The notes: a model not told the origin generated them from the letters alone. A stretch of DNA of 42,368 nt from an uncultured bacterium (GCA_964543505.1 CAZIYQ010000001.1:1-42368); one strand, 5' to 3'; shown: positions 1-16,838, counted from the first letter of the stretch. Translations and numbers: made by a program.

Positions 1-969
1 CGCAATTTTTCCGGCGCCGGCACCCACAATCGTTACATCCCCCAGCAGATCTGTTTTAAAAGTAAGAGCATTGGTTGCCCCCATGATGCCCGCAAGAGGA
101 TGTGTCAGCGGTACCATCTCGGGACGGACAGAGGCCGAAACACCACTGTCGGTTTTCTCAACCGAGCCAATCAGTTTCCAGCGGGCATTCCGGGACTGTG
201 CCCTGACAATGTCCTCTGGCGTTAAGTTAGTAATGCCCTTGCAACTCACGTCTTCAAGGGCGAGACTCTCTCCCATGACCACATTGGCCAGAATGGTAAC
301 TTTGGCCCTGGCGTCATAACCCTCCACATCGCCGGTTGGATCGGCTTCGGCATAACCCAGGGATTGTGCTTTTTGCAAAGCGGACTGATAGTCGGAACCC
401 TGCTCCATTTCCGACAGCATGAAATTGGTGGTTCCGTTCAGAACACCTTTGACCGCAGAAATGGAACATCCGGCCAGGGGACCATCCGCTAAATTCAATA
501 CCGGTGTGCCACTCATCACGGTGCCTTCGATCTGGAAGCACACATGGTGCTGCCGGGCAAGACGGTTCATTTCGACATAAGCGAGGGCGGCGGGACCTTT
601 ATTGCTGGTGACGATGTGCTTACCCGCAGCAAAAGCCTCTTTACAATGGCTGATGGCCGGTTCCCCGGTTTTCAGATTGGTAAAAGCCAGTTCGCAGACC
701 ACATCTGCATTCGAGCTGCGGATCATTTCCAGCGTATCCCACTCACAAACAGCGGTAATAAATTTCTGACCCAAGCGGCATTCAGCCAGCAGGGTGTCCA
801 CATCGAGACCTCCTGGATTAAAGATGGTGCCAAAACGGGGGTCACTCACGGCGACCACGGCATAGTCATAATTGAATTTCCGCTGAAGTTCGGTTTTCTT
901 GCGCGAGAGGATCTCACAGAGACCCTGCCCCACAGTTCCGAACCCCACAATGGCGATTTTTTGTGTCAT
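1..969 (-). CDS. hom: Homoserine dehydrogenase (C-terminal end cut by window edge)
   Basis: Absent from the supplied ORF track because it runs off the window. Manual translation from the ATG at 969..967 stays open to position 1 (323 codons). Motifs: MTQKIAIVGFGTVGQG (NAD-binding GxGxxG), VTSNKGP, LNGTTNFML, LGYAEADPTGDVEGYDARAKV. Starts 14 bp after the stop of the upstream metY-like gene. Confidence 0.88.
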   Translation of the reverse strand, partial: MTQKIAIVGFGTVGQGLCEILSRKKTELQRKFNYDYAVVAVSDPRFGTIFNPGGLDVDTLLAECRLGQKFITAVCEWDTLEMIRSSNADVVCELAFTNLKTGEPAISHCKEAFAAGKHIVTSNKGPAALAYVEMNRLARQHHVCFQIEGTVMSGTPVLNLADGPLAGCSISAVKGVLNGTTNFMLSEMEQGSDYQSALQKAQSLGYAEADPTGDVEGYDARAKVTILANVVMGESLALEDVSCKGITNLTPEDIVRAQSRNARWKLIGSVEKTDSGVSASVRPEMVPLTHPLAGIMGATNALTFKTDLLGDVTIVGAGAGKIA

Positions 970-983
970 AAATTTTTCTCCTG

Positions 984-2357
984 TTAAATATGGTTCAAAG
1001 CCTGGTCCAGATCAGCGATGATATCTTCGGGACTTTCGAGGCCCACCGATAAGCGCACCGTGCTGGGCTTTACCGCAGCCAGTTTTCGGCCTTCTTCACC
1101 CTGCTGCAGGTGAGTGGAAATTGCATTCAGGGTGGCAACGGTTTTGACCCGGCCCAGATCTGTAGCCCTCCAGATCATGTTCAAAGCATCATAAAATTTG
1201 CGTGTATTGACCGAGCTCCCTTCACCCTGTTCTTTAATTTCAAAGGCCATCAGATAACCAAAGGCATTATCATCTGTGTCAGCCAGTTTCATATATTTTT
1301 TAGCCAGATCATGTGCATGATAGGATGTGAGTCCCGGATAGTGAACCCGGGCAACTTTGGGATGTTCTTCAAGCCATCGGGCAACGGTCAAAGCCGTAAG
1401 GCTCATGACACCGGCGCGTAACCGCAGGCTGCGCATGTCGTTCAGGGTGAGAAAAGCCCCCATGGGATGCAATGCAGGACCATTGTCCCTGAACGGCCAA
1501 AGTTTCACCCAGGTGGCAAAGTCTGCTTTCATCTCGTCGGGTCCAACCCGGCTGGGGAGGTCTTTTTTAGAGACCAGCAAGCCTACGATGGAAGTCCCCG
1601 AGGTTGCAATGAGCTTGGTGGCGGACTGGACCACAATATCTGCCCCATGGGCCAGGGGACGAGTCAGGGCCGGTGAAGCACAGGTGGCATCTACAATCAA
1701 AGGTATGCCGACAGAGTGGGCCAATTTAGCGACAGCCTCAATATCGAAAATATCCACGGAAGGGTTAGATGGGAATTCGCTATAAAGGAAACGGGTTCCG
1801 CCATCAATTTTGGAATTCCAGTCCTCAATGTCAGAGGGAGCGGTGACCCAGCGGACCTCAAAGCCCTGCTCCAGGTGTCGTCTCTCCCAAAACTGCTGGA
1901 AAGCGCCACCGTAAATTTTTGCTGAAACAACCAGATTGGGCGGTGGCAGGGAATCTTCCTTAATCAGAAAGGGGTCGGTTGCTGTCCTGATAGCACTCAT
2001 CCCGCTGGAGGTTGCCAGACCGGATGTTTCGAGATCCGTTCCGTAGCCTTCGAGCAGGGCGATGGTTTCTTCCAGAAAATAAAGGGTTGGGTTTGCAATG
2101 CGGGTGTAACACCAGGTGGGCATCTGGTAGGAAAGCCCCGCCTCCATCTCGGCACTGTTGCGATAGGCCTGTGCGGTTGAAAGATAGATGGGCTCCATAA
2201 TTGAACCGCTATGCGATTCGTGGGCCGCCGTAGCATCATATAAGCCGTGCACGGCAATGGTATCGAATTTCCAGTTTCGGGTTCTGCGGATGCGCCTCTG
2301 ACGGTCTTCTGTCATGCGCCGACCTTCCCCGATCCAGTATTGTAAATCTTTATTCAT
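984..2357 (-). CDS. metY: Cys/Met-metabolism PLP-dependent enzyme, O-acetylhomoserine sulfhydrylase-like
   Basis: 457-aa ORF. The PLP-lysine motif SATKLIATSGTS aligns with the SxTKxxxGHG region of MetY/MetB-family enzymes. FDTIAVHG lies near the N-terminus and the gene sits directly upstream of hom. GGAG is 4 nt before the ATG. The Arg-rich N-terminal 30 aa are unusual, so an alternative start at M15 (2315) is possible. Confidence 0.7.
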   Translation of the reverse strand: MNKDLQYWIGEGRRMTEDRQRRIRRTRNWKFDTIAVHGLYDATAAHESHSGSIMEPIYLSTAQAYRNSAEMEAGLSYQMPTWCYTRIANPTLYFLEETIALLEGYGTDLETSGLATSSGMSAIRTATDPFLIKEDSLPPPNLVVSAKIYGGAFQQFWERRHLEQGFEVRWVTAPSDIEDWNSKIDGGTRFLYSEFPSNPSVDIFDIEAVAKLAHSVGIPLIVDATCASPALTRPLAHGADIVVQSATKLIATSGTSIVGLLVSKKDLPSRVGPDEMKADFATWVKLWPFRDNGPALHPMGAFLTLNDMRSLRLRAGVMSLTALTVARWLEEHPKVARVHYPGLTSYHAHDLAKKYMKLADTDDNAFGYLMAFEIKEQGEGSSVNTRKFYDALNMIWRATDLGRVKTVATLNAISTHLQQGEEGRKLAAVKPSTVRLSVGLESPEDIIADLDQALNHI

Positions 2358-2478
2358 AGCTCTCCAAATATTATAACTGTTTCTTTGGCAGACAATGAAA
2401 TTTAATATTGTATTATTTGATAAAACATCAATTTTATTTTATAATAAGGCAATATCGCAAAATATTATCAAAAAGGGT

Positions 2479-2508
2479 AAAAGGAGCTCCCCGGTGGGAG
2501 CCCCTTTT
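2479..2508 (-). terminator. Rho-independent terminator after the 948-aa surface protein gene (symmetric, potentially bidirectional)
   Basis: AAAAGG-A-GCTCCC-CGGT-GGGAGC-C-CCTTTT. The 6-bp GC stem (2486-2491 / 2496-2501) is extended by AAAAGG/CCTTTT, giving an A-run on one side and a T-run on the other. It lies 29 bp after the stop at 2537. Confidence 0.7.
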
Positions 2509-2536
2509 ATTGTCCTCTGACTGGAGTAAGGAAGGA

Positions 2537-5383
2537 TTATTTTACGAGGAACAATTTTTGAGTGACAGACTGATTCCCTACCGTGATACGGGAGAAATAG
2601 ACTCCACTCGAGTAGTGTTCTGCGTTCCACACCACGTGGTAATTGCCTGACGGGGCAAATTCATTCACCAGAGTCTCGACCAATTGTCCCTCCATATTGT
2701 AGATTGCAACACTAACCTGACCGGGAGCGGTAAGCTCATAACCGATTGTGGTCAGCGGATTGAACGGATTGGGATAGGCTGCCACTTTCATCACATCTGG
2801 CTGGTCGTTGCTGAGTGCTGCTGCAACCTGATTCCCGGATGCATCCGCTACAAGTGCCGTTTCGATCTGTAAAGGGCCAATGTAATCAAAGAGGTTACCA
2901 TTTTTAAGAGCTGCTCCATCGAGGCTGACAATCAGGATAGTATCATCACCGGCATAGAGTTCACAGCCTTCGGGCAATGAGTCGCCTGTGATTTCGTAAT
3001 TCCCGGAAACTTTGAGCTGTAATCCGGCAGCATCACCGATGGTCGTCAATGACAGACTGTTATTGGCCATGGTCAGTTTTGCATTTTCAAGATCTGCCCG
3101 GGAAAGTCCCGAATCGAGAATATAGGAGATGATCATGACGATGTCGGTGACATCCAGAACCCCATCCCCATTAAAATCTGCCGCAGTCAGTTCATCATCA
3201 GTGGGTTCGGCATTTCCAACGATGAAACCGATGGTCGTGACCACATCCACAATGTCAACCGTACCGCTACCGTCCACATCGCCGGGAACGGAGGGTGCAC
3301 CGGTGATTGGACTGTAGCAAATATCATCGAGCCAGAGCTCCTGTCCGCCCACTTTAAACTGATGGATGACATCAAGATTCTGTGTCAGGTAGAGCACACC
3401 GTCGTCGTCGCCAAACCCGTTGGTGACGGCAACATCCACCCCGCCAACCGTTAAACCGTCCAGGGCGACAAAGTCATCGACGTTGCGGAAATCACCGTTG
3501 ATCTCGAAATTAAGGTTGCCGCCGTATTCTCCGAACAATACTTCCATGTATTGTACATCAACTCCAAAATCCAGGTCAACGGATATATTATTAACCATGA
3601 TCTCAAGACCGGAACCATTGGCCATACCGCCATTTTGGATCACGGTCTGTCCATCGTAGTTGAGGGTCCCGTCAGCGTATTCAAAAGCACCGCAAGTAAC
3701 GGCAACCGAATAGGTGTTGAAAACATCGCCGAAGATATTAGTGTCACCCAGGTATTGATCTTCCCAGTCTGTGGCCAATTCATCACATTCCATACCGGGA
3801 CAGGACATGGGTAGATCACTGCAGATATCATCGATCCAGAGTTCCTGTCCACCCAGCGTCAGGTGGTGGATGGTATCGAGGTTGGCCACGAGGGTCAGCA
3901 CACCGTAATCGTCGCCATACCCGTTTGTCACGGAGACATCCACACCACCGATCATCAATCCGTTGACAGCCACGAAGTCATCAAAATTACGGAAATCCCC
4001 GTTGATCTCAAGATTCAGATTGCCACCGTATTCACCGAACAGGATTTCCATATAGCCAACATCAGCTCCCAAGTCCAGGTTCAAGTTAATATTATTGAGC
4101 ATGATCTCGTGTCCCCAGCCATTGGCCATACCGGCGTTTCCAAAAAGGGTATTACCGGAGGCGTAGGGTGTTCCATCAGACCAGATAAAATCCAGGCAGC
4201 TTGCCGTCACCATTCCCGAAGTGAACACGTCACCCACATAATGGGAAGTACCGACAAAGGAGTCTTCCCATTCCGTTGCGATAGATTCACAGCCGCCGGG
4301 TGCTGGCAGGGTCGTCAATTCATCATAGCAAATGTCATCGATCCAGAGTTCTTGTCCGCCGATGGTGAGATGTGAAATAGAATCCGTGTTTGCGCTCAGT
4401 GCCAGGACCCCGTAATCATCGCCGTAGCCGTTTGTAACAAAAACATCCACACCACCGATTGTCAGTCCGTTGATGGCAACGAAGTCATCGAAATTATGAA
4501 AATCTCCATTGATCTCCAGATTCAAATTGCCGCCGTATTCACCGAACAATATTTCCATGTATCCCACCGTTCCGCCCAGATCGAGATTCAGGTTGATATT
4601 GTTGACCTGCATCTCCAATCCGCTGCCGCCGGCCAACCCGGAATTACCCACTTGGGTATAGCCGCCGGATGTTGGCGTACCGTCACTCCAGATGAAATCC
4701 TGTCCCGCTACCGTGACAAGTTCCGATGTGAAGACATCGCCCACATAATAGCTGTTCCCGAGGGTCATATCTTCCCAGTCAGTGGCGATGGTTTCGCAAT
4801 CACCAACGGGAGGAAGGGATCCATCTCCGGATTCGTGATAACAGATGTCATCGATACTGAATTGCTGGCCTCCAATGATAAACTGGTCAATGGTGCTAAC
4901 GGATGAATCCAGGATCAGTGTACCAAAACTGCCCGCGACTCCACCAACCAGAGTAACTGTAACCCCTCCTATTACCATTCCGTCGATAGTCGCCATGTCA
5001 TCAATATTGTGATGGTCTCCATTGATGGAAATGTTGATGTTTCCACCATAATCCCCGAAGAGCATTTCCATATGATCTGGGGCGATGCCAATTTCCAAGT
5101 CCAGATTGATGTTATTTACGATCATAAAATACCCACTGCCATTGGCCATACCGTTTTCACCCACCGTAGTAGAGCCAATATTGTAGGGACTGCCGTCAAT
5201 CAGGTAAAAAGTGTGAGTGCTTACGTTGACGCCATAAGTAGAAAAATTACTCCCGACTGAGTAAGATGCGTCCAGCGTCATGTCTTCCCAGTCTGTTGCA
5301 AATTCATCACAGGCGGGTCTGTCCACTGCAAAAACAGCAGCTACACAAATTAGTAATATGATCATTGTTTTGATTGTCTTCAT
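2537..5383 (-). CDS. Exported repeat protein: signal peptide, 4 tandem unknown-function domains, dockerin-like module, T9SS C-terminal sorting domain
   Basis: 948-aa ORF with signal peptide MKTIKTMIILLICVAAVFAV. AAGGAG is 7 nt upstream of the ATG. The domain structure is listed in the separate features below. Confidence 0.85.
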   Translation of the reverse strand: MKTIKTMIILLICVAAVFAVDRPACDEFATDWEDMTLDASYSVGSNFSTYGVNVSTHTFYLIDGSPYNIGSTTVGENGMANGSGYFMIVNNINLDLEIGIAPDHMEMLFGDYGGNINISINGDHHNIDDMATIDGMVIGGVTVTLVGGVAGSFGTLILDSSVSTIDQFIIGGQQFSIDDICYHESGDGSLPPVGDCETIATDWEDMTLGNSYYVGDVFTSELVTVAGQDFIWSDGTPTSGGYTQVGNSGLAGGSGLEMQVNNINLNLDLGGTVGYMEILFGEYGGNLNLEINGDFHNFDDFVAINGLTIGGVDVFVTNGYGDDYGVLALSANTDSISHLTIGGQELWIDDICYDELTTLPAPGGCESIATEWEDSFVGTSHYVGDVFTSGMVTASCLDFIWSDGTPYASGNTLFGNAGMANGWGHEIMLNNINLNLDLGADVGYMEILFGEYGGNLNLEINGDFRNFDDFVAVNGLMIGGVDVSVTNGYGDDYGVLTLVANLDTIHHLTLGGQELWIDDICSDLPMSCPGMECDELATDWEDQYLGDTNIFGDVFNTYSVAVTCGAFEYADGTLNYDGQTVIQNGGMANGSGLEIMVNNISVDLDFGVDVQYMEVLFGEYGGNLNFEINGDFRNVDDFVALDGLTVGGVDVAVTNGFGDDDGVLYLTQNLDVIHQFKVGGQELWLDDICYSPITGAPSVPGDVDGSGTVDIVDVVTTIGFIVGNAEPTDDELTAADFNGDGVLDVTDIVMIISYILDSGLSRADLENAKLTMANNSLSLTTIGDAAGLQLKVSGNYEITGDSLPEGCELYAGDDTILIVSLDGAALKNGNLFDYIGPLQIETALVADASGNQVAAALSNDQPDVMKVAAYPNPFNPLTTIGYELTAPGQVSVAIYNMEGQLVETLVNEFAPSGNYHVVWNAEHYSSGVYFSRITVGNQSVTQKLFLVK
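2540..2776 (-). other. T9SS (Por) C-terminal sorting domain
   Basis: YPNPFNPLTTIGYEL...VSVAIYNMEGQLVETLV...GNYHVVWNAEHYSSGVYFSRITVGNQSVTQKLFLVK matches the PNPF / IY...G / GVYF / K..L.K pattern of Por secretion tails. Confidence 0.75.
3113..3283 (-). other. Dockerin type I-like double Ca-binding module (aa 701-757 of the 948-aa protein)
   Basis: GDVDGSGTVDIVDVVTTIGFIV ... ADFNGDGVLDVTDIVMIISYIL: two EF-hand-like D.D..G...I.D loops, each followed by a helix. Confidence 0.7.
3311..5311 (-). repeat. Four tandem ~160-aa protein-domain repeats inside the 948-aa CDS
   Basis: R1 is aa 25-184 (nt 4832-5311), R2 aa 196-355 (4319-4798), R3 aa 365-523 (3815-4291) and R4 aa 533-691 (3311-3787). Each starts C[DE]x[FIL]AT[DE]WED, contains MANGSG..NNINL.LD, LFGEYGGNLNLEINGDF.N.DDF and GG.DV.VTNG.GDD.GVL, and ends GGQELW[IL]DDIC. 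The 9-11 aa linkers are Pro/Gly-rich. The DNA copies look divergent at many third-codon positions, so this is not a recent duplication. Confidence 0.9.
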
Positions 5384-5842
5384 TTTATTTCTCCTTAGTT
5401 AACTTGATTTTATTTTTTCGCATTACTTCCAGTACGGACAATACAATTGCAAAGGGAAGACCAGAAGAACTCAACTTATTCGTGTATCAATAAATAACAA
5501 CCGCTTACAGGAAAGAATTAATTTCAAGCGTTGAGATACAGAGTTGATTTTGGAGTTCGTGACCCCAATTAAGGGTAGAGTTTCACTCCAATATTTGAAA
5601 CTCAACGTTACTTGTCAAAGCCAAATGATTCGGTGTTTAAAATCATGTTGACTGAAGGGTAGATCCATGTAGAAAATGTTCTAATGGTGGATGGCAGTGA
5701 GTTGAATGATAAAGTAAACAACCTGCGGCATGCATTTTGCCATAGTCATAGCAGGGTGAGAAATCAACTTATTAAAACTCACCAGGTATTGTAAATTTGT
5801 CAATTGATAACCTTCTGTTTTTTATCGAGTGGTGATACGAAA
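5384..5842. promoter_or_regulatory. Divergent control region between the repeat-protein gene and the AAA+/beta-helix/CHAT cassette
   Basis: 459 bp with no credible ORF. The pentamer TCAAC/GTTGA occurs 7 times (5471, 5530, 5543, 5602, 5647, 5701, 5764). There is an inverted repeat TTGGAGT (5550-5556) / ACTCCAA (5585-5591). A Bacteroidota-style -7 box TAnnTTTG (TAAATTTG, 5792-5799) lies 44 nt before the ATG at 5843. The exact promoters are not established. Confidence 0.4.
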
Positions 5843-7501
5843 ATGAAAATATTTAAAGCGTTGGAATACACGGATGAGGGAAAAATCCCCAAGGTTAAAA
5901 CCCTTGAAATTCAACTTAGTAGCCAACTGGAGGGCATAAAACAGGAACTGGTCAAAGCTTCTGCGCTGGTTGTCCCCGAGTCTGTTGCCGACCAACTGTT
6001 GGAATTTCGTTCGGCGATTTTGGATCGAAAGACCAAGCATCCTGCAAAATCCTTGTCATCCCTGTTACTCGGATACGATAAAATCCCCTTCATCCGGGGA
6101 GGCTACAAAAACACCGGGCAGCTGAAACGGAGCATCAAAACGCTCCTTTCAAGGGCTGCGGAATTATCCGAAAAAAACCTCTATTTAATTGGAGTCTCGG
6201 ATGAATTGTTCGGGCAACTCTGGGAAAAAAGGAAAATTGCTCCGGCCAAACCGGACAGCGCCGGGGAGAGCCAAATACCACCGGAACTTATCCAGCGCTA
6301 TTTGGGGAAATCTAGGGAAATCACCAAAATTCGTGAGATGATCGTGCTGGCCGCCGGCAATGCGGAACCCGTATTGATTCTCGGAGAGACGGGCACCGGC
6401 AAGGAGATCATCGCACAATCTATTCACCGCTACAGCCGGCCGGGAAAACCCTTCCAGGCCATCAATTGTGGTGCTATTCCCGGGGAACTCCTTGAACTCA
6501 CCCTCTTCGGTTATATGAAAGGCTCTCACCATTTGGCTGTGATGGATACCAAAGGCCTCTGGGAGACCGCCGCTGACGGGACGCTTTTTCTCGACGAAAT
6601 CGGTGACCTGGCCCTGAATCATCAGGTTAAGATTTTGAGAGCCCTGCAGGAAGGAAAGATCCGGCGGATTGGCAGCAATACTGAGATCGAGGTTAAGGCA
6701 AGGGTCATCGCCGCAACCAACAAAAACCTCAGCCGTGAGATCCGAGAGAAAAATTTCAGGAAAGATCTGCTTTCAAGACTGGATGTCATCCGCATTGAGA
6801 GCTCCCCCCTTCGCAAGCATCCGGAGGATATCCCGCTCATCGCTCAGGTCCGCTGGCGCGAGATCACCGAAAATTCTCGGCCGCCTTTGTCTGATGAATT
6901 TCTGACAGCGCTCCGCAAATACCATTGGCCAGGAAATGTCCGTGAGCTTGAGAATGTGATTAAAAAATTGCATTATCTCAATCCTGGCTGCCGGCCGGTG
7001 AGAATTGAAAATCTGCAGGAGATTCTAAAAAACAGTGATCTCACTTACCGCCTTGAACAGCTTGCAAAAGAAGGCGCAAACGCATTCGAGATTAACCTGT
7101 GGATTGAATCCAGTACACGAGATTTTGCTCCCGACTCAAAACTGTTCAGTGTGGGAGATCCGATTCAGGTTTGTTTAAAGGCCGACAGAGACTGTCAACT
7201 ATTCCTGTTCGATCTGGGTACGACAGGAGATATTACTTTTATTCCGCCCAAACCGCAGTTGAACAACCACGTTCCTGCCAGAGAAGAGATCCGAATCCCC
7301 GGAGTTCTGAAAGGTACCGCCGGGAACGAGACTTTGTTTGCTTTTGCTTCATCAGCAGAACTTGAAATTGATCCCCGACACTGGTACTCTTCCGAAGAGG
7401 GTCTTCGAGATATCCTGGACATGATAGAGAAATATAATAAGCAGAACCAGGATAGCAGCATTGCCGTAAAATCACTTACATTCGAGATCATTGAAAAATA
7501 A
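5843..7501 (+). CDS. Atypical NtrC/sigma54-activator-type AAA+ ATPase with unknown N-domain and DUF4384-like C-domain (no GAFTGA, no HTH)
   Basis: The ORF opens at TTG 5804; the first ATG is 5843 (MKIFKALEY). Walker A is GETGTGKE (6383-6406), Walker B GTLFLDEIGDL, RVIAATNKNL follows, and sensor II is WPGNVRELENVI. At the GAFTGA position the sequence reads GSHHLA (6521-6538). The C-terminal ~135 aa (VGDPIQVCLKADRDCQLFLFDLGTTGDITFIPP...GNETLFAFAS) resemble DUF4384 rather than a Fis-type HTH. Confidence 0.8.
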   Translation: MKIFKALEYTDEGKIPKVKTLEIQLSSQLEGIKQELVKASALVVPESVADQLLEFRSAILDRKTKHPAKSLSSLLLGYDKIPFIRGGYKNTGQLKRSIKTLLSRAAELSEKNLYLIGVSDELFGQLWEKRKIAPAKPDSAGESQIPPELIQRYLGKSREITKIREMIVLAAGNAEPVLILGETGTGKEIIAQSIHRYSRPGKPFQAINCGAIPGELLELTLFGYMKGSHHLAVMDTKGLWETAADGTLFLDEIGDLALNHQVKILRALQEGKIRRIGSNTEIEVKARVIAATNKNLSREIREKNFRKDLLSRLDVIRIESSPLRKHPEDIPLIAQVRWREITENSRPPLSDEFLTALRKYHWPGNVRELENVIKKLHYLNPGCRPVRIENLQEILKNSDLTYRLEQLAKEGANAFEINLWIESSTRDFAPDSKLFSVGDPIQVCLKADRDCQLFLFDLGTTGDITFIPPKPQLNNHVPAREEIRIPGVLKGTAGNETLFAFASSAELEIDPRHWYSSEEGLRDILDMIEKYNKQNQDSSIAVKSLTFEIIEK

Positions 7502-7513
7502 CCAGGGGAGACC

Positions 7514-9334
7514 ATGAAAAACAAATTTGTCTATTTTACACTTTGCCTTTCAACGATGGTTTATGGAACCATTATCCACGTGGGGCAGGGACAGGGGCTG
7601 CCACTGATCCAGGAGGGAATCGATACCGCTCAGCCCGGCGATACGGTCCTGGTGGATGACGGAATGTATTTTGAAAATCTCAGGCTGAACAAAGAGATCA
7701 CCCTGGCCAGCAGAGCTATTTTAGACGATCCTGTGAACTGGCCCAATAATCCCCACATGATGAATACCATTATCGATGGCAGCGCAGCACCACCGGATGC
7801 CATTCATGGCAGCTGCCTCACCATTGTGACCCCTTTTGACCCGGGAGGCTTGCCCCTGCCAATTTCACCGCAAATATCAGGATTTACTCTACAGCATGGG
7901 TTTGGCACCAGAGTTACCCAAGTTTCATCCTTTGATGACAATTTCATTGAACATCTGCGCTTGGGGGGCGGCGTATTGATCGCCGGATCAACACCCTCAT
8001 TCAGCTTTAACCGATTTTTAGAAAACGGTCAGTCCAATCGAGCAGCCGGTGTAGCACGAGGTGGTGCAGCATACGCTGGAACTGATGTGGATATTGATGA
8101 GATCAGGCCGGGAATTAGACGTCATGAACAGCCAACCCGCAATGACAGCCTTCATTTTTCACACAACATCTTTCTGGCAAATTCAGCCGGGATGGGAAAA
8201 ACGATGTTTGTAGATGGCTACCAGGGGACCATAGCTGTGGACGATTGTTTTTTTGATGTATTTGACTGTGAGCATCAAACGGTTCCCACCGCCTGGATCG
8301 TCGCTGGATCCCCGGGCCTGGAATTTGATTTTTCATTAGGGGAGGGCATGGTTTGCTCCATAAATCATGATGTGTGGATCAGTCCTGCCGGGGATGATTC
8401 GAATGGCACGGGTGACCCTTGGGCACCCTTCAGAACCATAACTCATGGTTTGGAAATGATTTCAGCAAGCCTGGACAATCCCATCGGTTTACATCTGCTG
8501 CCGGGTTTGTATGCACCCTATGAGAATGGCGAGCAGTTCCCCCTGAACCTGCCGGACAACTGTCTGCTGATTGGGGACTTTGGTGACCCTGTTGTCATCG
8601 ATGCGGATTCCACTGCCAGAGCTCTGACCATCATAAACGCTACCAAAACGCGCTGTGAACGAATTGCCATTAGCGGAGGTCAGGCCGGCAGTGCAGCCGG
8701 AGGAGGGATTGGTCTTTGGAATGCTCGTCTTGAGTTACTGAACGTGACACTTTCGGGGAATACTGCTCTTAGCGGAGGGGCGATTTATGCCGAGAACAGC
8801 GAGGTGCAGATGGTCAATACGATTGTGTGGAACAACAGTCCGCCCCAACTGCATTTTAATGCACAGCGTTTCCCTGTCCGGGCTGTGTTGGCCTATTCGG
8901 ACATTCAGGGAGGACTGAACGGTGTTTATTCCAATCTTCCGGACAATCTATTCTGGCTGGCTGGCAACCTGTCCCAGTGGCCCCAGCTCTCAGGTGATTT
9001 TTGTCTGGCGAACGACTCACCGTGTGTGGATGCGGGAATTCAGGACGTGACCATTGTCTATAACATGGAACAGGACACACTCTTTATTCCCCCACTACCC
9101 TTTAGCGGGCTAAATCCGGATATGGGGGCCTGTGAAACCCCGGGCGAGCCCTTTTTGCCCGGCGATGTAGATCAAAATGGTGAGCTGAATATTGTGGATA
9201 TTGTCATTATGGTGGATTTGACGCTGAACGGCGGTGCTTCCTCCTACGAGATGCAAGCCGGTGATCTGGATAACAGTGGCGAGATCAACATTGTTGACAT
9301 TGTTCTGCTGGTTGGAATAATTCTCGACTTATAA
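7514..9334 (+). CDS. Exported right-handed beta-helix protein (two modules) with C-terminal dockerin-like domain
   Basis: Signal peptide MKNKFVYFTLCLSTMVYG, with GGGGAG upstream of the ATG. IHVGQGQGLPLIQEGIDTAQPGDTVLVDDGMYFENL is a typical beta-helix N-cap. A second cap follows (SPAGDDSNGTGDPWAPFRTITHGL), and there are GGAIY/NTALSGG turns. The dockerin GDVDQNGELNIVDIV...GDLDNSGEINIVDIV lies at 9158-9331. Confidence 0.75.
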   Translation: MKNKFVYFTLCLSTMVYGTIIHVGQGQGLPLIQEGIDTAQPGDTVLVDDGMYFENLRLNKEITLASRAILDDPVNWPNNPHMMNTIIDGSAAPPDAIHGSCLTIVTPFDPGGLPLPISPQISGFTLQHGFGTRVTQVSSFDDNFIEHLRLGGGVLIAGSTPSFSFNRFLENGQSNRAAGVARGGAAYAGTDVDIDEIRPGIRRHEQPTRNDSLHFSHNIFLANSAGMGKTMFVDGYQGTIAVDDCFFDVFDCEHQTVPTAWIVAGSPGLEFDFSLGEGMVCSINHDVWISPAGDDSNGTGDPWAPFRTITHGLEMISASLDNPIGLHLLPGLYAPYENGEQFPLNLPDNCLLIGDFGDPVVIDADSTARALTIINATKTRCERIAISGGQAGSAAGGGIGLWNARLELLNVTLSGNTALSGGAIYAENSEVQMVNTIVWNNSPPQLHFNAQRFPVRAVLAYSDIQGGLNGVYSNLPDNLFWLAGNLSQWPQLSGDFCLANDSPCVDAGIQDVTIVYNMEQDTLFIPPLPFSGLNPDMGACETPGEPFLPGDVDQNGELNIVDIVIMVDLTLNGGASSYEMQAGDLDNSGEINIVDIVLLVGIILDL

Positions 9335-9352
9335 TGATGGATTCGTAAACTT

Positions 9353-11818
9353 TTGGGTAACATGCAAAATAGGAAAGTGCTTCTCGAAAAAGCCAAACAA
9401 TTCGTCTCGGACGGTGATTTAATTCAGGCGGTCAATCCCGAAGAAGCAGTCCTGTCGTACCAATCCGCCGTAGAAACTTATCTCGAAATTGATGAACAGG
9501 CCAAAGCGGCGGATCTTCTCAATCACAAAATCGGGGTTTTATACTACAACAAAGGCTTGAACAGGGAAGCTGAAAAATGGTGGCGCAAAGCCCTTGAGGC
9601 CTATCTATCCCTGAAAGAACCTGCCGGGACCAGTGATATCTGCAACAAGCTGGGAGTGGTCCATAAGTTGATGGCCGACTATTCCACTGCGTTGCAATAT
9701 TATCAAAAGGGGCTTGAATCCACAAGCCGGTTATCAGATTCAAAAATTAAAGTCAAATTACTAAATAACCTGGGGTTGGTCTATAAACTCTTGGGACATC
9801 CACGGCGAGCCAAAGAGAAATTCAAAGAGAGCCTTGCTCTGAAAAGAGAGATGGGGGATTTGATTGGTTCCGCCAATACACTGAACAATCTGGGGAATGT
9901 GTACAAAAGCCTGGGCGATCATGCCAAGGCTATCGAAGCTCTGGAAGAATGCAGGGCCATCTTTTTGAATGAACTGAAAACTCAAGATCAGAATAACGAA
10001 GCACTTCATTTCGGACTTGTCGCAGCCACACATGATATTGGCAATTTGCATTTTCAGAATGGACATCTGGAAACCGCCATGGAGTATTACAAGGAATCTC
10101 TCAACTTCAACCGCAGACAGGGGAAGATTGTCAGCCTTTTTGCCGATTATCGGGATTTGGGAGAGATTTACATCCGGCTTAAAAAATTCGAAAGTGCCGA
10201 GCGTTTTCTGAATCAGGCCAAGGCCATTGCTGAAAAGGCCGGTATGGAAGATTGTCTTTTTAGGGCATACCAGTCATTGGGAAATCTAAAACTGGCTGAA
10301 GGAGAATTGGGTGAGGCCTTCGGACAGTACAGAAACGCTATCGAAATACTGGAAAATATTCGCGGGAATCTGCTTTACGAGAGCCATCAAACAGGTTTTA
10401 TGAAAGGCGTGCTCGAGATTTACATCTCTGCCATCTCTGTTCTGATCCGTCTGAACCGTAAAGAGGAGGCTTTTAACTACCTGGAAATGATGAAAGCCCG
10501 GGTCCTGCTGGATGTCTTGGAAGGTGGTTTTTCTGATTTCGAAGAACTGCTGACGGATGCTGAAGTCCACAAGGAGCAGGAACTACTTGAAAAATTGGAA
10601 AAACTTAACAGTGATATCGCAGGTTTGCGGTCGTTCCAACAATCCGAATTTTCTGTGTTTGCCCAAATGCGAGAGCAGGCGCGGGAAGACCTGCACACTT
10701 TTGAGGAAGAATTATATGTCACTCATCCCGATGTAAAGGAGCTGCGGGGCAGGGGAGAACCCCTACCATTTAAAAGAGCCAGAAACCTGATGAGTCGAGA
10801 TGAGATTGCCATATATTATCTCATAGAGGAACAAAAGCTGCTGATCTTCCTGCTCTCACGCCGGGAGCTGGAAATCGTTGAGACCAATATCTCCGCAGAG
10901 GAACTCAAATCGAGAGTAATCGCCCTGCAAAATCCCACCACGCTTTGGGATCATGAGGCCGGCAGAGACTTGTATCAGCTACTCATCGCACCCCTTTTAC
11001 CCTATTTGAAAAATATTGATCGTCTCTGTCTGATACCCGACGGCATCCTGAACACTTTGCCCTTCCAGGCCCTTGAGAATGCCGACACCGGCCGCTATTT
11101 GATAGAAGATTTTGCCGTGTATTATGTGCCCTCTCTCTCTGCACTGAAAAGCGTCCGGAGCCTGGGGAATTACGGCACCAGTTCATTGCTGGCGCTGGGT
11201 GATCCGCAATTTGGAGACCCGCAGCAACAAGCCGGGGGGGACAGGGATAAGATGATGACCCTGCATCCGCTTCCTGCCACGAGAGAGGAAGTTGAAGTTC
11301 TTAAAACGGTCTATGAACCCAAAGTAAAAATACTCACAGGGGCAGAGGCCACAAAGTCCAATTTAAAGAAATATGCTTCCCAATATGGAGTTCTGCATTT
11401 TGCAACCCATGCCTTTACGGATGAGACCAACCCTACTTTTTCGGCCATCGCACTTGCCCATGAAAAGGGAGAATACGGATTTCTTATTGCAAAAGAGATC
11501 ATTAAAATGGAGCTGAATGCCGATCTTGTCGTACTCAGTGCCTGCAAAACGGCCACCGGAAAAGTTGTGGAAGGAGAAGGGATGTTGGGCCTCACGCGAG
11601 CCTTTTTTACCGCCGGAATTCCAACAGTAGTGGCCTCTCTGTGGAATGTGGAGGATTGCTCAACCCGGGAACTGATGGTGCAATTTCATACCCGCTTCAG
11701 AAAGAGGGAGCGCCCTGCAACGGCATTACGCGAAGCCCAGTTGCACCTGCTTCACGAGACGCAATATGATAACCCCTTTTACTGGGCACCCTTTGTCCTG
11801 ATTGGTGATTCAGAATAA
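9353..11818 (+). CDS. TPR-repeat CHAT-domain (caspase-like, clan CD) protease, cytoplasmic
   Basis: 821-aa ORF from TTG 9353; the first ATG is 9362. The N-terminal ~390 aa are TPR_12-like repeats (NNLGLVYKLLG, NNLGNVYKSLG, DIGNLHFQNG, DLGEIYIRL, QSLGNLKLAEG), followed by a helical linker. The CHAT domain is about aa 545-818. The catalytic His lies in VLHFATHA (H686, nt 11408-11410) and the catalytic Cys in LVVLSACKTA (C731, nt 11543-11545). The domain ends with the typical YWAPFVLIGD. No signal peptide. Confidence 0.85.
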   Translation: MGNMQNRKVLLEKAKQFVSDGDLIQAVNPEEAVLSYQSAVETYLEIDEQAKAADLLNHKIGVLYYNKGLNREAEKWWRKALEAYLSLKEPAGTSDICNKLGVVHKLMADYSTALQYYQKGLESTSRLSDSKIKVKLLNNLGLVYKLLGHPRRAKEKFKESLALKREMGDLIGSANTLNNLGNVYKSLGDHAKAIEALEECRAIFLNELKTQDQNNEALHFGLVAATHDIGNLHFQNGHLETAMEYYKESLNFNRRQGKIVSLFADYRDLGEIYIRLKKFESAERFLNQAKAIAEKAGMEDCLFRAYQSLGNLKLAEGELGEAFGQYRNAIEILENIRGNLLYESHQTGFMKGVLEIYISAISVLIRLNRKEEAFNYLEMMKARVLLDVLEGGFSDFEELLTDAEVHKEQELLEKLEKLNSDIAGLRSFQQSEFSVFAQMREQAREDLHTFEEELYVTHPDVKELRGRGEPLPFKRARNLMSRDEIAIYYLIEEQKLLIFLLSRRELEIVETNISAEELKSRVIALQNPTTLWDHEAGRDLYQLLIAPLLPYLKNIDRLCLIPDGILNTLPFQALENADTGRYLIEDFAVYYVPSLSALKSVRSLGNYGTSSLLALGDPQFGDPQQQAGGDRDKMMTLHPLPATREEVEVLKTVYEPKVKILTGAEATKSNLKKYASQYGVLHFATHAFTDETNPTFSAIALAHEKGEYGFLIAKEIIKMELNADLVVLSACKTATGKVVEGEGMLGLTRAFFTAGIPTVVASLWNVEDCSTRELMVQFHTRFRKRERPATALREAQLHLLHETQYDNPFYWAPFVLIGDSE

Positions 11819-11854
11819 GAATTACAAATATTCCATCCGGTCGAAACACCAGAA

Positions 11855-12658
11855 TTATATAGAATCAAGAATACCGATGAGCAGATTTGCGAAAGACTGT
11901 TTTACGCGATCGGTCGTTTCCAGCACTTCAGTGTGAGAAAGGGGTTCGGGTGATATCCCCGCGGCATAGTTTGTGAGGCAGGATATTCCCAATATTTTCA
12001 GACCCAGTTGACTGGCTGCCTGAATCTCCGGGACGGTGGACATGCCCACGGCATCACCCCCGAGACGAGCGATCTTGTTGATCTCTGCGGGAGTTTCGTA
12101 GGTAGGACCCAGAGTCCAGCAATAGACTCCCCGGCGCAAGGGTAATTTATTTTTTTCCGCAACCATGAGCGCTATATCGGTAAGTTTAATATCATGGTAT
12201 CCGTTGCCGGCTAAGACCAAAGGGTCCTTAGACGAATTACGAAAAGTGAAATCGAGATGGGCTGTGATCACCATGAGGTCGCCCAAATTCCATTGCCGCC
12301 GGAGGCAACCCGCAGCATTTGTAATGATCACAGTTTTGCAGCCTATGGCAGAGAAGATTTTAATCGGCAGCGTCACAGTCTCAAGTGCGTGTCCTTCATA
12401 ATAATGAAAACGACCCCTGGCACAAAAAACAGACGTTCTGCCAACATAGCCAAAGACGAATTCACCCACATGTCCGGACACAGAAGGCTGGGGATAACCG
12501 GGAATGTCGGCATAAGGAATTGTAATTTCTCCTGTGAGATGAGTAGAGAAATTTGCCAGACCCGAACCAAGGATAATGGCCGCCTCTGGTGCTTCAGGCA
12601 GGATATTGAGGATGTGTTCTGTAATATCTCCGATCATAAGTTCTCTTTCATGCTTCAT
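11855..12658 (-). CDS. Purine nucleoside phosphorylase (PNP/MTAP family)
   Basis: ILGSGL, SVSGHVGEFVFG, GRFHYYEG, TNAAG and GMSTVPE motifs. I chose the ATG at 12658 (MKHEREL) because it forms an ATGA overlap with the rlmN stop. The longer ORF reaching 12721 would overlap rlmN by 67 nt. Confidence 0.85.
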   Translation of the reverse strand: MKHERELMIGDITEHILNILPEAPEAAIILGSGLANFSTHLTGEITIPYADIPGYPQPSVSGHVGEFVFGYVGRTSVFCARGRFHYYEGHALETVTLPIKIFSAIGCKTVIITNAAGCLRRQWNLGDLMVITAHLDFTFRNSSKDPLVLAGNGYHDIKLTDIALMVAEKNKLPLRRGVYCWTLGPTYETPAEINKIARLGGDAVGMSTVPEIQAASQLGLKILGISCLTNYAAGISPEPLSHTEVLETTDRVKQSFANLLIGILDSI

Positions 12659-13749: not shown

Positions 13750-13869
13750 CGGGTAAATATTACAAAAAGTTCACGGAGGTATTGTTAATTAAAAATTATC
13801 GGTGAACATTCGTGTTGGTTGATGGTTTATGTCCCGTTTAGATTCCACACCCGAAATTATAGGAGAAAT

Positions 13870-14844
13870 ATGGATAACGTAAAATTAGTACAGAAATTAC
13901 ATCAACAAAAATCAGCATTATACGATGAAATTGGTAAAGTGATCATTGGGCAGAAGGATATTGTTGAACGCTTATTTATTTCATTATTATGCAAAGGCCA
14001 TATCCTGTTGGAGGGAGTGCCCGGATTGGCAAAAACCTTGTTGATCAAAACCCTTTCCGATGTTTTGGACCTTTCCTTTAACCGTATTCAATTTACACCG
14101 GATTTAATGCCGTCCGATATTACCGGTACAGATATCATTGAAGATAATGCCGAAACCGGAAAACGGGAATTCAAATTTTTTCAGGGTCCGGTGTTTGCAA
14201 ATATCATTCTCGCTGACGAAATCAACCGGACACCGCCCAAAACTCAGGCCGCTCTGCTGGAAGCGATGCAGGAACACAAAGTCACTACCGGCGGAAAAAC
14301 CTATACTCTTGAAGAACCCTTTTTCGTTTTGGCAACGCAAAATCCCATCGAACAGGAAGGCACCTATCCACTGCCCGAAGCCCAGCTCGACCGTTTCATG
14401 TTTAATGTCTTCATTCGCTATCCTTCCGCTGCGGAAGAGGTGGATATTGTCAAATCCACTACCGGCTCATCAGACGTATCGCTGAACAAGATCATCTCGC
14501 GAAAGGAATTGCTGGAGTTCCAGGAACTAGTCCGCAATGTGCCCGTGGCTGATAATGTGATTGAATACGCCGTTGATATTGTGGGCAAAACGCGTCCACT
14601 GTCAGAGACGGCCCCACAATTCACCAAAGACTGGCTGGATTGGGGTGCGGGACCCCGGGCCAGCATGTTTTTAGTCCTTGGCGCCAAAGCCAGGGCAGTC
14701 CTCGACGGACGCACAACCCCAGACATCAATGATGTTATTTCGCTGGTCAAGCCGGTCTTGCGCCACAGGATCATCACCAATTTTAATGCAGAGGCCGATG
14801 GCATCAAAACGGACGATGTTTTGGATAAATTGATCAAGGGTTAG
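13870..14844 (+). CDS. MoxR-family AAA+ ATPase
   Basis: AGGAG is 5 nt before the ATG at 13870. Motifs: LLEGVPGLAKT (Walker A), RIQFTPDLMPSDITG, ILADEINRTPPKTQAALLEAMQE, ATQNPIEQEGTYPLPEAQLDRF. Confidence 0.9.
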   Translation: MDNVKLVQKLHQQKSALYDEIGKVIIGQKDIVERLFISLLCKGHILLEGVPGLAKTLLIKTLSDVLDLSFNRIQFTPDLMPSDITGTDIIEDNAETGKREFKFFQGPVFANIILADEINRTPPKTQAALLEAMQEHKVTTGGKTYTLEEPFFVLATQNPIEQEGTYPLPEAQLDRFMFNVFIRYPSAAEEVDIVKSTTGSSDVSLNKIISRKELLEFQELVRNVPVADNVIEYAVDIVGKTRPLSETAPQFTKDWLDWGAGPRASMFLVLGAKARAVLDGRTTPDINDVISLVKPVLRHRIITNFNAEADGIKTDDVLDKLIKG

Positions 14845-14854
14845 ACGCAGTCGA

Positions 14855-15745
14855 ATGGCAAAAACCCGGTACCTGACTCCAGATATTATCTCGCGTCTCG
14901 ACAATCTGTCGCTGAAGGCGCGCATGGTGGTTGAGGGTTTCATTGTGGGTCTTCACAAAAGTCCCTACCACGGTTTTTCTGTGGAATTTTCAGAACATCG
15001 GTCATATGGTCCCGGAGATGAAATCCGGCATATTGACTGGAAACTCTGGGGGAAAACCGAACGCTATTATGTGAAGCAGTTTGAAGAAGAGACCAATTTG
15101 CGCTCACATCTGTTAGTGGATCAGAGTCGTTCGATGGCGTTTAAATCCGGAGCAGTGAGCAAACTGAATTACGCCCAGGTCCTGGCCGCTTCCCTGGCAT
15201 ATCTGATGATCAAACAGCAGGACGCCGCCGGCCTCACGCTTTTCGATTCGGAGATCCGTTCTTACGTACCGTCACGTTCCAAAACCAGCCATTTGAATGT
15301 GCTTCTGGGGCAGATGGACCACATCAATCCCGGACCCGAAACCCGCATTAGTCCCATCCTGCACAAAACAGCCGAAGCCATCCGCAAAAGGGGATTGATC
15401 GTCCTCATTTCAGATCTCTTCGATGATCCCGACGAAATGATCTCCGGTCTGAAGCATTTTCGCCACAAAGGTCACGAGGTTATCGTTTTTCATATTTTAG
15501 ACCCCCAGGAATTAACACTCGATTTTACAAATCGAACTCTGTTCAAAGATATGGAAACAAAAGAGGAAATCATCACTGAGCCCTGGCACATTCAGAAAGA
15601 TTATCAGAAGAGCCTGCGAGATTTCTGCGATCACATCCAAAACCGCTGTCGAAGGAATCATATTGATTATGTGCGCCTCACCACGGACCAACCCCTAGAT
15701 CTGGCCCTGGTAGAGTATCTCATCAAACGCAAACGGATGGGATAA
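14855..15745 (+). CDS. DUF58 (vWA-like) protein, MoxR partner
   Basis: HKSPYHGFSVEFSEHRSYGPGDEIRHIDWKLWGKTERYYVKQFEEE is the DUF58 signature. The gene starts 10 bp after moxR. Confidence 0.85.
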   Translation: MAKTRYLTPDIISRLDNLSLKARMVVEGFIVGLHKSPYHGFSVEFSEHRSYGPGDEIRHIDWKLWGKTERYYVKQFEEETNLRSHLLVDQSRSMAFKSGAVSKLNYAQVLAASLAYLMIKQQDAAGLTLFDSEIRSYVPSRSKTSHLNVLLGQMDHINPGPETRISPILHKTAEAIRKRGLIVLISDLFDDPDEMISGLKHFRHKGHEVIVFHILDPQELTLDFTNRTLFKDMETKEEIITEPWHIQKDYQKSLRDFCDHIQNRCRRNHIDYVRLTTDQPLDLALVEYLIKRKRMG

Positions 15746-15769
15746 AAAAAGAGCAGCTATTTAAGCTGC
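15744..15769 (-). terminator. Rho-independent terminator for the minus-strand TPR lipoprotein gene, between convergent genes
   Basis: Stem GCAGCT (15753-15758) / AGCTGC (15764-15769) with loop ATTTA. On the minus strand it is followed by TCTTTTTTT (plus-strand A-run 15744-15752). Confidence 0.6.
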
Positions 15770-15788
15770 CCTAAAGTTCAGACCCGAA

Positions 15789-16838
15789 TTATTGTTTCAT
15801 CGACTCCAACTCCTGAATAAAGGTCTTATCAATGATCTTGATTTTCTTCTTCAATTCCTTGGCCAACCGCCTGCTTTCATTATCATCGGGGTCGTAGGAT
15901 ATGGCATCCATAAAATAACCTCTGGCTTTTTTAAAGAGGTCTTTGGAACCTAAAAACAGCTCAATGATATGGTCAAAATTTTCATTGGCGACATGAGAAG
16001 CTGATATCATTTCATTATATGCATCGACGGCAGTATTATATTTTTCAATGGCCATCCGATGATAGAGAGCACCCAGATTGTAGGCGATGTCTCCATTGTA
16101 ATCTGATATTTTATCGGCATAATCCTGGGCTGCAGGGTAATCATCCATGAGAAATTTTACTTCAAAGAGTCTCAGGTAGAGCTTATCTGAATCCTTTGAA
16201 TCCGTTGATAATTCCAATGCTTGCAGATATAAAGATTCGGCTTTGGAATAATCTTCATCGGCCTTGGCCAGGTCCCCTTTAAGGATGAGCAGATCCATAT
16301 CAATTGGGGCATCTTTTATGGCGTTGAGTGCTTTTTTCTGATTGCCCTGCTTTGCGTAAATGGAATAAAGTGCTTTGTACGCTTTTCCATCTAAAGGCAA
16401 TACATCAATGGCAAGCTTAAAGCTGGCGATGGCTTTGTCCGTTTCATCCCGGTTCAACTGCTCAACACCCTCATTGAAAATTTTACTCCATTCCTGCTGT
16501 CTCTGAATTTCAATGGCCTGCCCCACGGTAGTGATCACCTCATCTCCCACTCTGTAAAACTGTGGCAATTTGGCATCCGGATTGATCTCGAGTGCTTTGG
16601 TGAACATTTTATTCATCTCAGCCCAGCGTTTTTGGGGAACATATACATCTTTTGCCAGCAGATAGGGAACGAGCGCATTTCCGGGTTCGGTCTGCAGGGC
16701 TTGTAAAAAAAAGGTCTCGGCGTTTTCCAGATCATTCTCATTCACATACATTTTTGCGGAACGGAATTCCACACTTTCACAGCCGATCATTAACAGAATG
16801 ACGGCTAATGCCATCGAAGAGCGGATCAATTTTTTCAT
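15789..16838 (-). CDS. TPR-repeat lipoprotein
   Basis: Lipoprotein signal MKKLIRSSMALAVILLMIGC. There are multiple A..Y..AL...P-type TPR-like repeats, but I recognise no specific family. Confidence 0.6.
   Translation of the reverse strand: MKKLIRSSMALAVILLMIGCESVEFRSAKMYVNENDLENAETFFLQALQTEPGNALVPYLLAKDVYVPQKRWAEMNKMFTKALEINPDAKLPQFYRVGDEVITTVGQAIEIQRQQEWSKIFNEGVEQLNRDETDKAIASFKLAIDVLPLDGKAYKALYSIYAKQGNQKKALNAIKDAPIDMDLLILKGDLAKADEDYSKAESLYLQALELSTDSKDSDKLYLRLFEVKFLMDDYPAAQDYADKISDYNGDIAYNLGALYHRMAIEKYNTAVDAYNEMISASHVANENFDHIIELFLGSKDLFKKARGYFMDAISYDPDDNESRRLAKELKKKIKIIDKTFIQELESMKQ

Follow-up and report, generated by a model that had tools for sequence, protein, structure and literature searches.

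What is an ATPase of the enhancer-binding-protein type doing beside a caspase-like protease when it lacks both of the features needed for sigma-54 activation? The question is raised by positions 5,843 to 11,818 of a 42,368-nucleotide stretch of DNA from an uncultured bacterium (GCA_964543505.1 CAZIYQ010000001.1:1-42368), the whole of which is called the window here. Three genes, g1, g2 and g3, lie there in the same direction: g1 encodes the ATPase, g3 a protein in which tetratricopeptide repeats (TPR) are joined to a CHAT protease domain, and g2 an exported protein. Enhancer-binding-protein AAA+ ATPases are treated, and annotated by pipelines, as dedicated sigma-54 activators, and yet g1, without the means for that task, stays beside the protease. 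The reading we favour, with a probability of roughly 0.4, is that g1 and g3 make up an ATP-gated switch coupled to a CHAT protease, housed in a vertically inherited four-gene module of the Neomarinimicrobiota/FCB group. The features on which this reading depends are the following.

5843..7501, plus strand: g1, a cytoplasmic AAA+ protein of 552 amino acids (aa), made up of an N-domain, AAA+ core, linker and DUF4384 (from Pfam, AlphaFold2 and orthologues)
5843..6238, plus strand: N-terminal alpha/beta domain (N-domain) of g1, aa 1-132 (from alignments and a domain model)
6281..7036, plus strand: AAA+ core and lid of g1, aa 147-398 (from Pfam and alignments)
6521-6538, plus strand: L1 loop of g1, GSHHLA, aa 227-232, at the GAFTGA position in alignments
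7091..7498, plus strand: DUF4384 beta-sandwich of g1, aa 417-503, then a helix and closing strand, aa 517-550 (from Pfam, a profile and the model)
9362..11818 (alternative TTG start at 9353), plus strand: g3, a cytoplasmic TPR-CHAT protease of 818 aa (from Pfam, alignment and orthologues)
TPR repeats of g3, plus strand, approximately aa 9-330, followed by CHAT at 10955-11809, aa 532-816 (from Pfam)
11408-11410 and 11543-11545, plus strand: His683 and Cys728 of g3 (from alignment)

The ATPase and the protease

Calling of open reading frames (ORFs) on the window returned the three co-directional plus-strand ORFs that a first-pass annotation, made by a model from the sequence alone, had described, with g1 at 5843-7501, g2 at 7514-9334 and g3 ending at 11818. 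The 12-bp gap given there between g1 and g2 stands, whereas the 18-bp gap between g2 and g3 holds for the alternative TTG start and widens to 27 bp with the ATG at 9362 that the public gene call (P0121, 818 aa) uses. These short gaps suggest that g1, g2 and g3 may be read as a single transcript. Inspection of the translations revealed a hydrophobic N-terminal leader in g2 and in the gene upstream of g1 only, in agreement with the earlier statement that g2 carries a signal peptide and that g1 and g3 do not, and Pfam scans of the three proteins upheld every earlier domain call.

g1 begins with an ATG at 5843 and matches Sigma54_activat (PF00158; 3.4e-55, aa 154-319) and AAA_lid_14 (2e-14). Its ATPase motifs include Walker A (GETGTGKE), Walker B (D251-E252), sensor I (T292-N293) and the arginines R306, R312 and R367; in alignments the Walker A and B motifs, both sensors (I and II) and the arginine fingers all remain intact and show little or no variation. 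Judged from these motifs, g1 is predicted to be ATPase-competent. The GAFTGA position is taken by GSHHLA in the window, by G[SA]HHLA in three orthologues and by GSHSTA in the partial protein P0005, and the Pfam scan of g1 returned no match to the helix-turn-helix (HTH) family HTH_8. Pfam and the alignments therefore agree with the first-pass annotation that g1 is without the sigma-54 contact motif and without a recognisable DNA-binding domain. Retention of G[SA]HHLA in four members of the clade points away from decay and towards selection for a new partner.

The AlphaFold2 model of g1, which has a mean predicted local distance difference test score (pLDDT) of 89.8, places in order the alpha/beta domain, a short disordered stretch, the AAA+ core and lid, a linker helix, the beta-sandwich, a helix and the closing strand. 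A short variable loop (aa 411-416) and a stretch of lower confidence (pLDDT 67-80) lie between the lid and linker helix on one side and the beta-sandwich on the other. In Foldseek comparisons the core superimposes on FleQ, NtrC1, FlrC and PspF at a root-mean-square deviation (rmsd) of approximately 1.7-2.5 Å. The N-domain, modelled alone, reaches a pLDDT of 94.4 and carries the conserved motif D61-R62-x2-K65-H-x-A-K69-x-L71 (DRxxKHxAKxL). It has no match in Pfam, its profile finds none among PDB sequences, and a fold search of the PDB gave a best E of 0.12 with a TM score of 0.42 or lower. We also considered a receiver (REC) domain, first hinted at by Foldseek matches of full-length g1 to the receiver-plus-AAA structures of NtrC1 and NtrC4; these superimpose at an rmsd of 10-13 Å only, and the candidate was rejected on the lack of any PDB fold match or Pfam match for the domain modelled alone.

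The C-terminal module required closer evaluation, given that in full-length g1 DUF4384 (PF14326) scores 26.5 bits, 0.5 bit under the 27-bit Pfam gathering cut-off. Scanned alone, the C-terminus of g1 scores 29.5 bits against the same cut-off of 27. Among 1.84 billion representatives, an exhaustive HMMER search with a profile of the clade C-termini retrieved 372 proteins; 109 of these matches were scanned, and Pfam assigns DUF4384 to 108. On this profile evidence the assignment of DUF4384 in g1 can be regarded as solid. The same profile finds nothing significant among PDB sequences. Across these 109 nearest relatives, DUF4384 recurs C-terminally on signalling and protease enzymes, its partners being Lon_C (5), guanylate cyclase (4), protein kinase (2), Peptidase_C14 (2) and TIR (1), with DUF4145 also occurring once; some relatives bear the periplasmic-type domains CsgG, FlgO, OmpA or LpoB. 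The link between DUF4384 and caspase-like peptidases that had been put forward from general knowledge does exist, but as a minority association (2/109).

g3 contains a strongly supported CHAT domain (PF12770, clan CD; 1.4e-80, 271 bits) and five TPR_12 stretches. His683 and Cys728 are invariant in 17 aligned sequences, so that the catalytic dyad is intact, as was first supposed for the same two residues under the names H686 and C731, numbered from the TTG start; g3 is thus predicted to be a catalytically intact protease. The protein scores 36.1 bits (E 3.6e-9) against the NCBIfam model of Csx29 (NF041237), whose family cut-off is 300. No PDB sequence matched the CHAT domain alone, and full-length g3 matched TPR proteins only. 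The closest outgroup to g3, P0126 (35% identity, locus L096), has a CHASE2-cyclase as neighbour and no AAA+ gene. In that locus (586-7354) the P0126 gene overlaps the end of the gene for the CHASE2-guanylate cyclase, and is preceded by a reverse transcriptase (RVT_1) gene and three unannotated ORFs.

A conserved module of four genes

Further loci were found through contigs that encode orthologues of both g1 and g3. Four independent loci (the window, L001/L013, L002-L004 and L094/L095) contain the genes in the same arrangement, and in all of them the unit is larger than the three genes of the first-pass annotation: the divergently transcribed gene at 2537-5383 is a fourth conserved member of the module. 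Among the public records, that of L013 bears the title 'Candidatus Neomarinimicrobiota bacterium', and 'FCB group bacterium' occurs as a second name. Across L001, L094 and L002 the divergence of the four proteins runs in parallel. Identities to the window proteins, in the order g1, g2, g3 and the product of the fourth gene, are as follows.

L001: 75%, 72%, 76% and 74%
L094: 60%, 49%, 53% and 52%
L002: 53%, 42%, 49% and 42%

The surroundings of the module have changed in part. An upstream flank is common to the window, L001 and L094; downstream, the flank differs in L094, and both flanks differ in L002. Housekeeping proteins of the flanks have 70-94% identity to their counterparts in L001. The GC content of g1-g3 (0.486) is close to that of the rest of the window (0.480), and the window has no mobile-element genes, no tRNAs and no tandem repeat arrays. 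Given the matching GC content, the lack of mobile genes and tRNAs and the divergence of the module in step with its flanks, we regard the module as resident and vertically inherited rather than as a recent insertion. A recent horizontal insertion was rejected on these same grounds. The first-pass description of an inserted accessory module was right in that the flanks are housekeeping genes (DnaE, RF1, PrmC, DapF, PlsY and similar proteins make up the rest of the window, and every ORF of at least 150 aa scanned there is either housekeeping or part of the module), and mistaken as to insertion, in view of the GC content, the lack of mobile genes and tRNAs, and an upstream flank common to three loci.

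The fusion of this AAA+ core to DUF4384 is rare. It accounts for approximately five sequence clusters among 5.8 billion and for two representatives among the 1.84 billion; elsewhere it was seen in one other species among GTDB genomes and, by alignment of the DUF4384 region to JGI metagenomes, on the 2-kb contig of P0003. Wherever a contig with the fusion is long enough to tell, which is the case in the four independent loci, the CHAT gene is present as well. A test of whether this pairing is conserved across phyla had been suggested; synteny is kept in four loci, in one of them with both flanks changed, but these belong to a single small clade, and conservation across phyla finds no support.

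The remaining two members of the module both encode exported proteins with a dockerin domain, one of them exported by a type IX secretion system (T9SS).

7514..9334, plus strand: g2, an exported protein of 606 aa, with a leader, DUF1565/right-handed beta-helix and a type I dockerin at aa 549-599
2537..5383, minus strand: T9SS-exported dockerin protein of 948 aa, with a leader, repeats, Dockerin_1 at aa 699-755 and Por_Secre_tail at aa 869-944

In g2, Pfam detects DUF1565 (1e-07), Dockerin_1 at 23.3 bits (cut-off 22.9) and, weakly, Beta_helix. The domains of the T9SS protein were assigned from Pfam and NCBIfam together, and its dockerin, which is 36% identical to that of g2, also matches PDB chains. 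The repeats of this protein are four tandem units of approximately 170 aa, starting with C-x-E/T-x-ATDWED and ending with GGQ-x-hydrophobic-x-I/L-DDIC, which have no Pfam match. Its orthologue in L002 is longer, at 1475 aa.

Between the T9SS gene and g1 lies a shared promoter region, which we compared with the orthologous regions of the other three loci (L001 8082-8544; L002 9546-10000; L094 6127-6493).

5384..5842, no strand assigned: AT-rich intergenic region of 459 bp between the divergent T9SS gene and g1

The window region contains seven copies of the box AACTCAAC/GTTGAGTT, counted with at most one mismatch, and the orthologous regions of the other three loci contain 8, 7 and 5, where the density in each whole locus predicts 0.25-0.53 per region. 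The order and orientation of the boxes are broadly kept among the four loci, and an inverted pair with a 10-nt spacer occurs at 5575-5606 in the window and at 8275-8306 in L001. Such an arrangement resembles a set of operator or enhancer sites for a putative DNA-binding protein. At 5792-5799 the region also has TAAATTTG, which we take to be an FCB-type -7 box, by analogy with Bacteroidota-type promoters. A sigma-54 promoter (TGGCAC-N5-TTGCW, at most 2 mismatches) is present neither in 5384-5842 nor in the g1-g2 and g2-g3 gaps, and matches across the window occur at the frequency expected by chance. An Rfam scan of 5300-12000 returned one sub-threshold chance match only, and none within 5384-5842.

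Some 2 kb downstream of g3, at 13819-16838, the window has a further, Bat-like set of genes for a MoxR (AAA_3, with a weak bpMoxR match), a DUF58/vWA protein and a TPR protein. This set is 93-94% identical in L001 and absent from L002 and L094, and so is not part of the module.

The N-domain family and its neighbours

The N-domain of g1 heads a large family of proteins of approximately 530-585 aa in Acidobacteriota, Pseudomonadota and other phyla, which carry the annotation of sigma-54-interacting regulators. In these proteins the enhancer-binding-protein core is present and HTH_8 is absent, and the C-terminus is helical, unlike that of g1. The canonical GAFTGA occurs in 36 of 100 aligned members; the variants, which are shared by entire subclades, include GVATGV (13), YTFTDA (8) and GAFSGA (6), besides GSHSTA and other His- or Ser-rich loops. 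To our knowledge, genuine activators seldom vary so much in this loop. The loop sequences suggest that the family may have departed repeatedly from sigma-54 activation.

We looked up the neighbourhoods of eight family members outside the Marinimicrobia clade. The neighbours include a DUF4062-AAA_16 gene of the STAND class (signal transduction ATPases with numerous domains) in L005, giant TIR-STAND-WD40 genes in L007, a ClpB-like ATPase and an RHS toxin in L008, and GHKL ATPase, STAND-WD40, RyR and RelA_SpoT genes in L099. Beside the member P0025 in L010 stands a divergent operon of an AAA_2 gene, three unknown genes, a TPR gene and a gene for a TPR-CHAT protein of 1107 aa, together with MazE/PIN and DUF4062 genes; the same divergent AAA_2 operon recurs in L097, there with a TIR gene. 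Pup-ligase-like clusters adjoin the family members of L005, L011 and L012. Most of the eight relatives thus adjoin genes of conflict or effector type, which fits a role for the family as a sensor or switch beside effectors.

As a control we used 79 generic enhancer-binding-protein loci, matched through the WPGNV motif in a scan of genome contigs with g1; besides generic enhancer-binding proteins, that scan recovered one true relative. A CHAT gene within 10 kb was found at 0/79 control loci, and an N-domain likewise at 0/79. Measured against generic enhancer-binding proteins, adjacency to CHAT is specific.

Two of the neighbouring gene sets merit description in their own right. The Pup clusters (L005 1-4419; L011 2734-7708; L012 13453-17614) comprise two Pup_ligase genes, one or two ORFs of approximately 65 aa and an AAA_lid_9 ATPase gene of approximately 400 aa, to which L011 adds an Mpa-like AAA gene and Prok-JAB; Acidobacteriota is the annotation given to one of these three records. 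By their gene content, these clusters could be a pupylation-like system. The operon of the ClpB-like AAA_2 ATPase (approximately 720-750 aa) is divergent in L010 (690-7894) and L097 (2928-9684), where its unannotated products measure approximately 337, approximately 715 and 343-435 aa. In L008 (3500-7916) a similar ATPase gene stands upstream of the family member on the same strand, together with one gene for a protein of 733 aa.

Readings of the locus and known systems

These data allow us to propose a mechanism for an ATP-gated protease switch. A signal would act on the N-domain of g1 and let the AAA+ ring assemble and hydrolyse ATP. The ring would then engage the TPR-CHAT protein through its altered L1 loop, DUF4384 or both, and this engagement would either turn the protease on or supply it with substrate; cleavage by CHAT might in turn alter the state of the cell. 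We infer that the ring could serve as a remodeller of the protease, as was first suggested for it.

Several points weigh against this proposal. The physical contact between g1 and g3, the direction of coupling and the output are all things that we infer, and the sensing role of the N-domain, which we take to be an input or regulatory domain, is assumed. The exported beta-helix protein g2, encoded between the genes of two cytoplasmic proteins, has no place in the mechanism. Homotypic pairing of DUF4384 domains between g1 and g3 was considered and rejected, as Pfam finds no DUF4384 in g3. No CHAT gene stands near seven of the eight relatives whose neighbourhoods were looked up. An array of AACTCAAC boxes between divergent genes is the pattern expected of a transcription regulator and its target. 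The pairing of g1 with g3 is, moreover, documented in one narrow lineage, so its conservation could partly reflect shared ancestry.

The first alternative reverses the relation between the two proteins, with g1 as the substrate of g3: the protease would dock on DUF4384 or cut beside it, and separation of DUF4384 from the AAA+ module would free or activate the ATPase. The analogy is with Craspase, where the TPR-CHAT protease Csx29 is reported to cleave Csx30 at the point where its variable C-terminal domain begins, one group of these domains being DUF4384 (Kato et al., bioRxiv 10.1101/2022.08.17.504292). In favour of this reading, a short variable loop (aa 411-416) and a dip in pLDDT to 67-80 lie ahead of the beta-sandwich of g1, and the CHAT domain of g3 is distantly related to the Csx29 model. 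That similarity is, however, far under family level (36 bits against 300), and the window has no Cas7-11, Csx31 or RpoE gene and no CRISPR-like array. The linker of g1 is conserved and predicted to be helical, not long and disordered, and DUF4384 is found on many proteins that are not proteases. By this analogy, cleavage of g1 by g3 may be entertained but is unlikely.

In the second alternative g1 would still be a transcription regulator, acting on RNA polymerase from solution, in the manner of enhancer-binding proteins that have no DNA-binding domain, or with a DNA-binding partner that reads the AACTCAAC array, and g2 and g3 would be co-regulated cargo. Its core is nearest to genuine sigma-54 activators in sequence and in fold, a multi-copy box array stands in the promoter region of all four orthologous loci, and a divergent layout of regulator and target recurs in L010, L097, L099 and the window. 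FlgR and CtcC activate sigma-54 transcription without a DNA-binding domain, and TyrR and the NtrC of Rhodobacter function without GAFTGA. Each of these known exceptions, however, lacks one or the other, whereas g1 lacks both. The intergenic region is also without a sigma-54 promoter, no DNA-binding family is matched by either DUF4384 or the N-domain, and only 36 of the 100 family members retain the canonical loop. We consider a transcriptional role for g1 doubtful, and place in the same doubt its corollary, that g1 would control the divergent T9SS gene together with its own operon.

Returning to g1 and g3 as a switch coupled to a protease, we next consider what such a switch might serve. A third alternative keeps a sensor ATPase with a CHAT effector and differs in role rather than in mechanism, the pair acting in abortive infection or anti-phage defence. 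CHAT and caspase-like proteases are recurrent immune effectors, and most of the family members looked up stand beside TIR, DUF4062-STAND, RHS, PIN/MazE or RelA_SpoT/RyR genes. These conflict-type neighbours point toward defence, opposite to the regulatory role to which we incline. PADLOC (PADLOC-DB v2) matches the three proteins to no system: g1 is detected through the AAA+ part of RtcR/PspF, g3 through a generic TPR model and g2 not at all, which agrees with the first-pass remark that the trio was not recognised as a named defence or signalling system. Apart from the module the window encodes housekeeping functions, and integrases, tRNAs and further defence genes are all absent; the GC content of the module is that of the background, and the locus is stable and diverges together with its flanks. 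Two secreted dockerin proteins, finally, are part of the conserved unit. We regard a defence role as improbable, and because the location is stable and core-like and two secreted proteins are conserved along with the pair, we lean slightly towards a lineage-specific regulatory role tied to those proteins, rather than a mobile anti-phage system. Adjacency by descent alone, with unrelated functions, would fit a set of loci that all come from one lineage and a middle gene whose exported product has no obvious tie to the cytoplasmic pair, but it is very improbable: the block outlives changes of flank in L002 and L094, its intergenic gaps are short, none of the 79 control loci has a CHAT gene, and an association with CHAT arises again, independently, in L010.

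The wider implication is more tentative than the switch itself. It is possible that an enhancer-binding-protein ring has been repurposed, away from the remodelling of sigma-54 polymerase, to gate a CHAT protease, or to be gated by one, through a new L1 loop and DUF4384, and, more broadly, that hundreds of N-domain 'sigma-54-interacting regulators', which have no HTH and mostly no GAFTGA, make up a class, so far unrecognised, of sensor ATPases in control of adjacent effectors. If so, a new ATPase class would join the bacterial proteolytic switches controlled by nucleoside triphosphatases (NTPases), and DUF4384 would gain a testable role as a protease-linked module, tied to the Csx30 substrates of Craspase. 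The N-domain family would also flag widespread mis-annotation. Surprising as the architecture is, the genomes known to have it are a handful from uncultured bacteria; given its small size, the system lends itself to tests by heterologous expression.

How does the module compare with systems already described? Like the enhancer-binding proteins NtrC, PspF and FleQ, g1 combines Sigma54_activat with AAA_lid_14 and has its ATPase motifs intact, and its core is 38-45% identical to the cores of FleQ, NtrC1 and FlrC. It differs from them in having GSHHLA in place of GAFTGA, a DUF4384 C-terminus and no HTH_8/Fis domain, an N-domain that is not REC, GAF, PAS or V4R, and no sigma-54 promoter nearby. With GAFTGA, HTH and promoter all wanting, g1 should not be filed as a sigma-54 activator. 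RtcR (CARF-AAA+-HTH) provides the best PADLOC/NCBIfam-type match to the AAA+ core of g1, and likewise joins a sensor domain to an enhancer-binding-protein ATPase, if the assumed sensor role of the g1 N-domain is granted. Only the AAA+ part aligns (profile positions 167-438), and g1 has no CARF match, no HTH and no sigma-54 loop.

Craspase (type III-E) resembles the module in that a TPR-CHAT gene adjoins the gene for a protein in two parts, the C-terminal one of which can be DUF4384. The window contains neither Cas7-11/gRAMP, Csx31 and RpoE genes nor a tandem-repeat (CRISPR-like) array, and, where Csx30 has a helical N-terminal domain, g1 has an AAA+ ATPase. Without Cas genes, and with g3 far under the Csx29 cut-off, the module is not a Craspase. 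The STAND-CHAT and STAND-caspase fusions and the MoxR-vWA ternary systems (Kaur et al. 2020, PMC7159879) likewise place an NTP-dependent switch beside a protease of the caspase superfamily. Unlike these, the module has an ATPase of the enhancer-binding-protein clade and no vWA partner, is chromosomally stable and includes two secreted proteins; the MoxR and DUF58 pair downstream (13819-15745) is retained only in L001, and does not make of the module a MoxR-vWA ternary system. In the same study NtrC-like ATPases are named as transcription regulators only (PMC7159879), and our literature searches returned no account of the gene trio or of enhancer-binding-protein-type ATPases that partner CHAT proteases. 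The logic of an NTPase switch beside a protease of the caspase superfamily is already known; what would be new here is the class of ATPase found in such a pairing.

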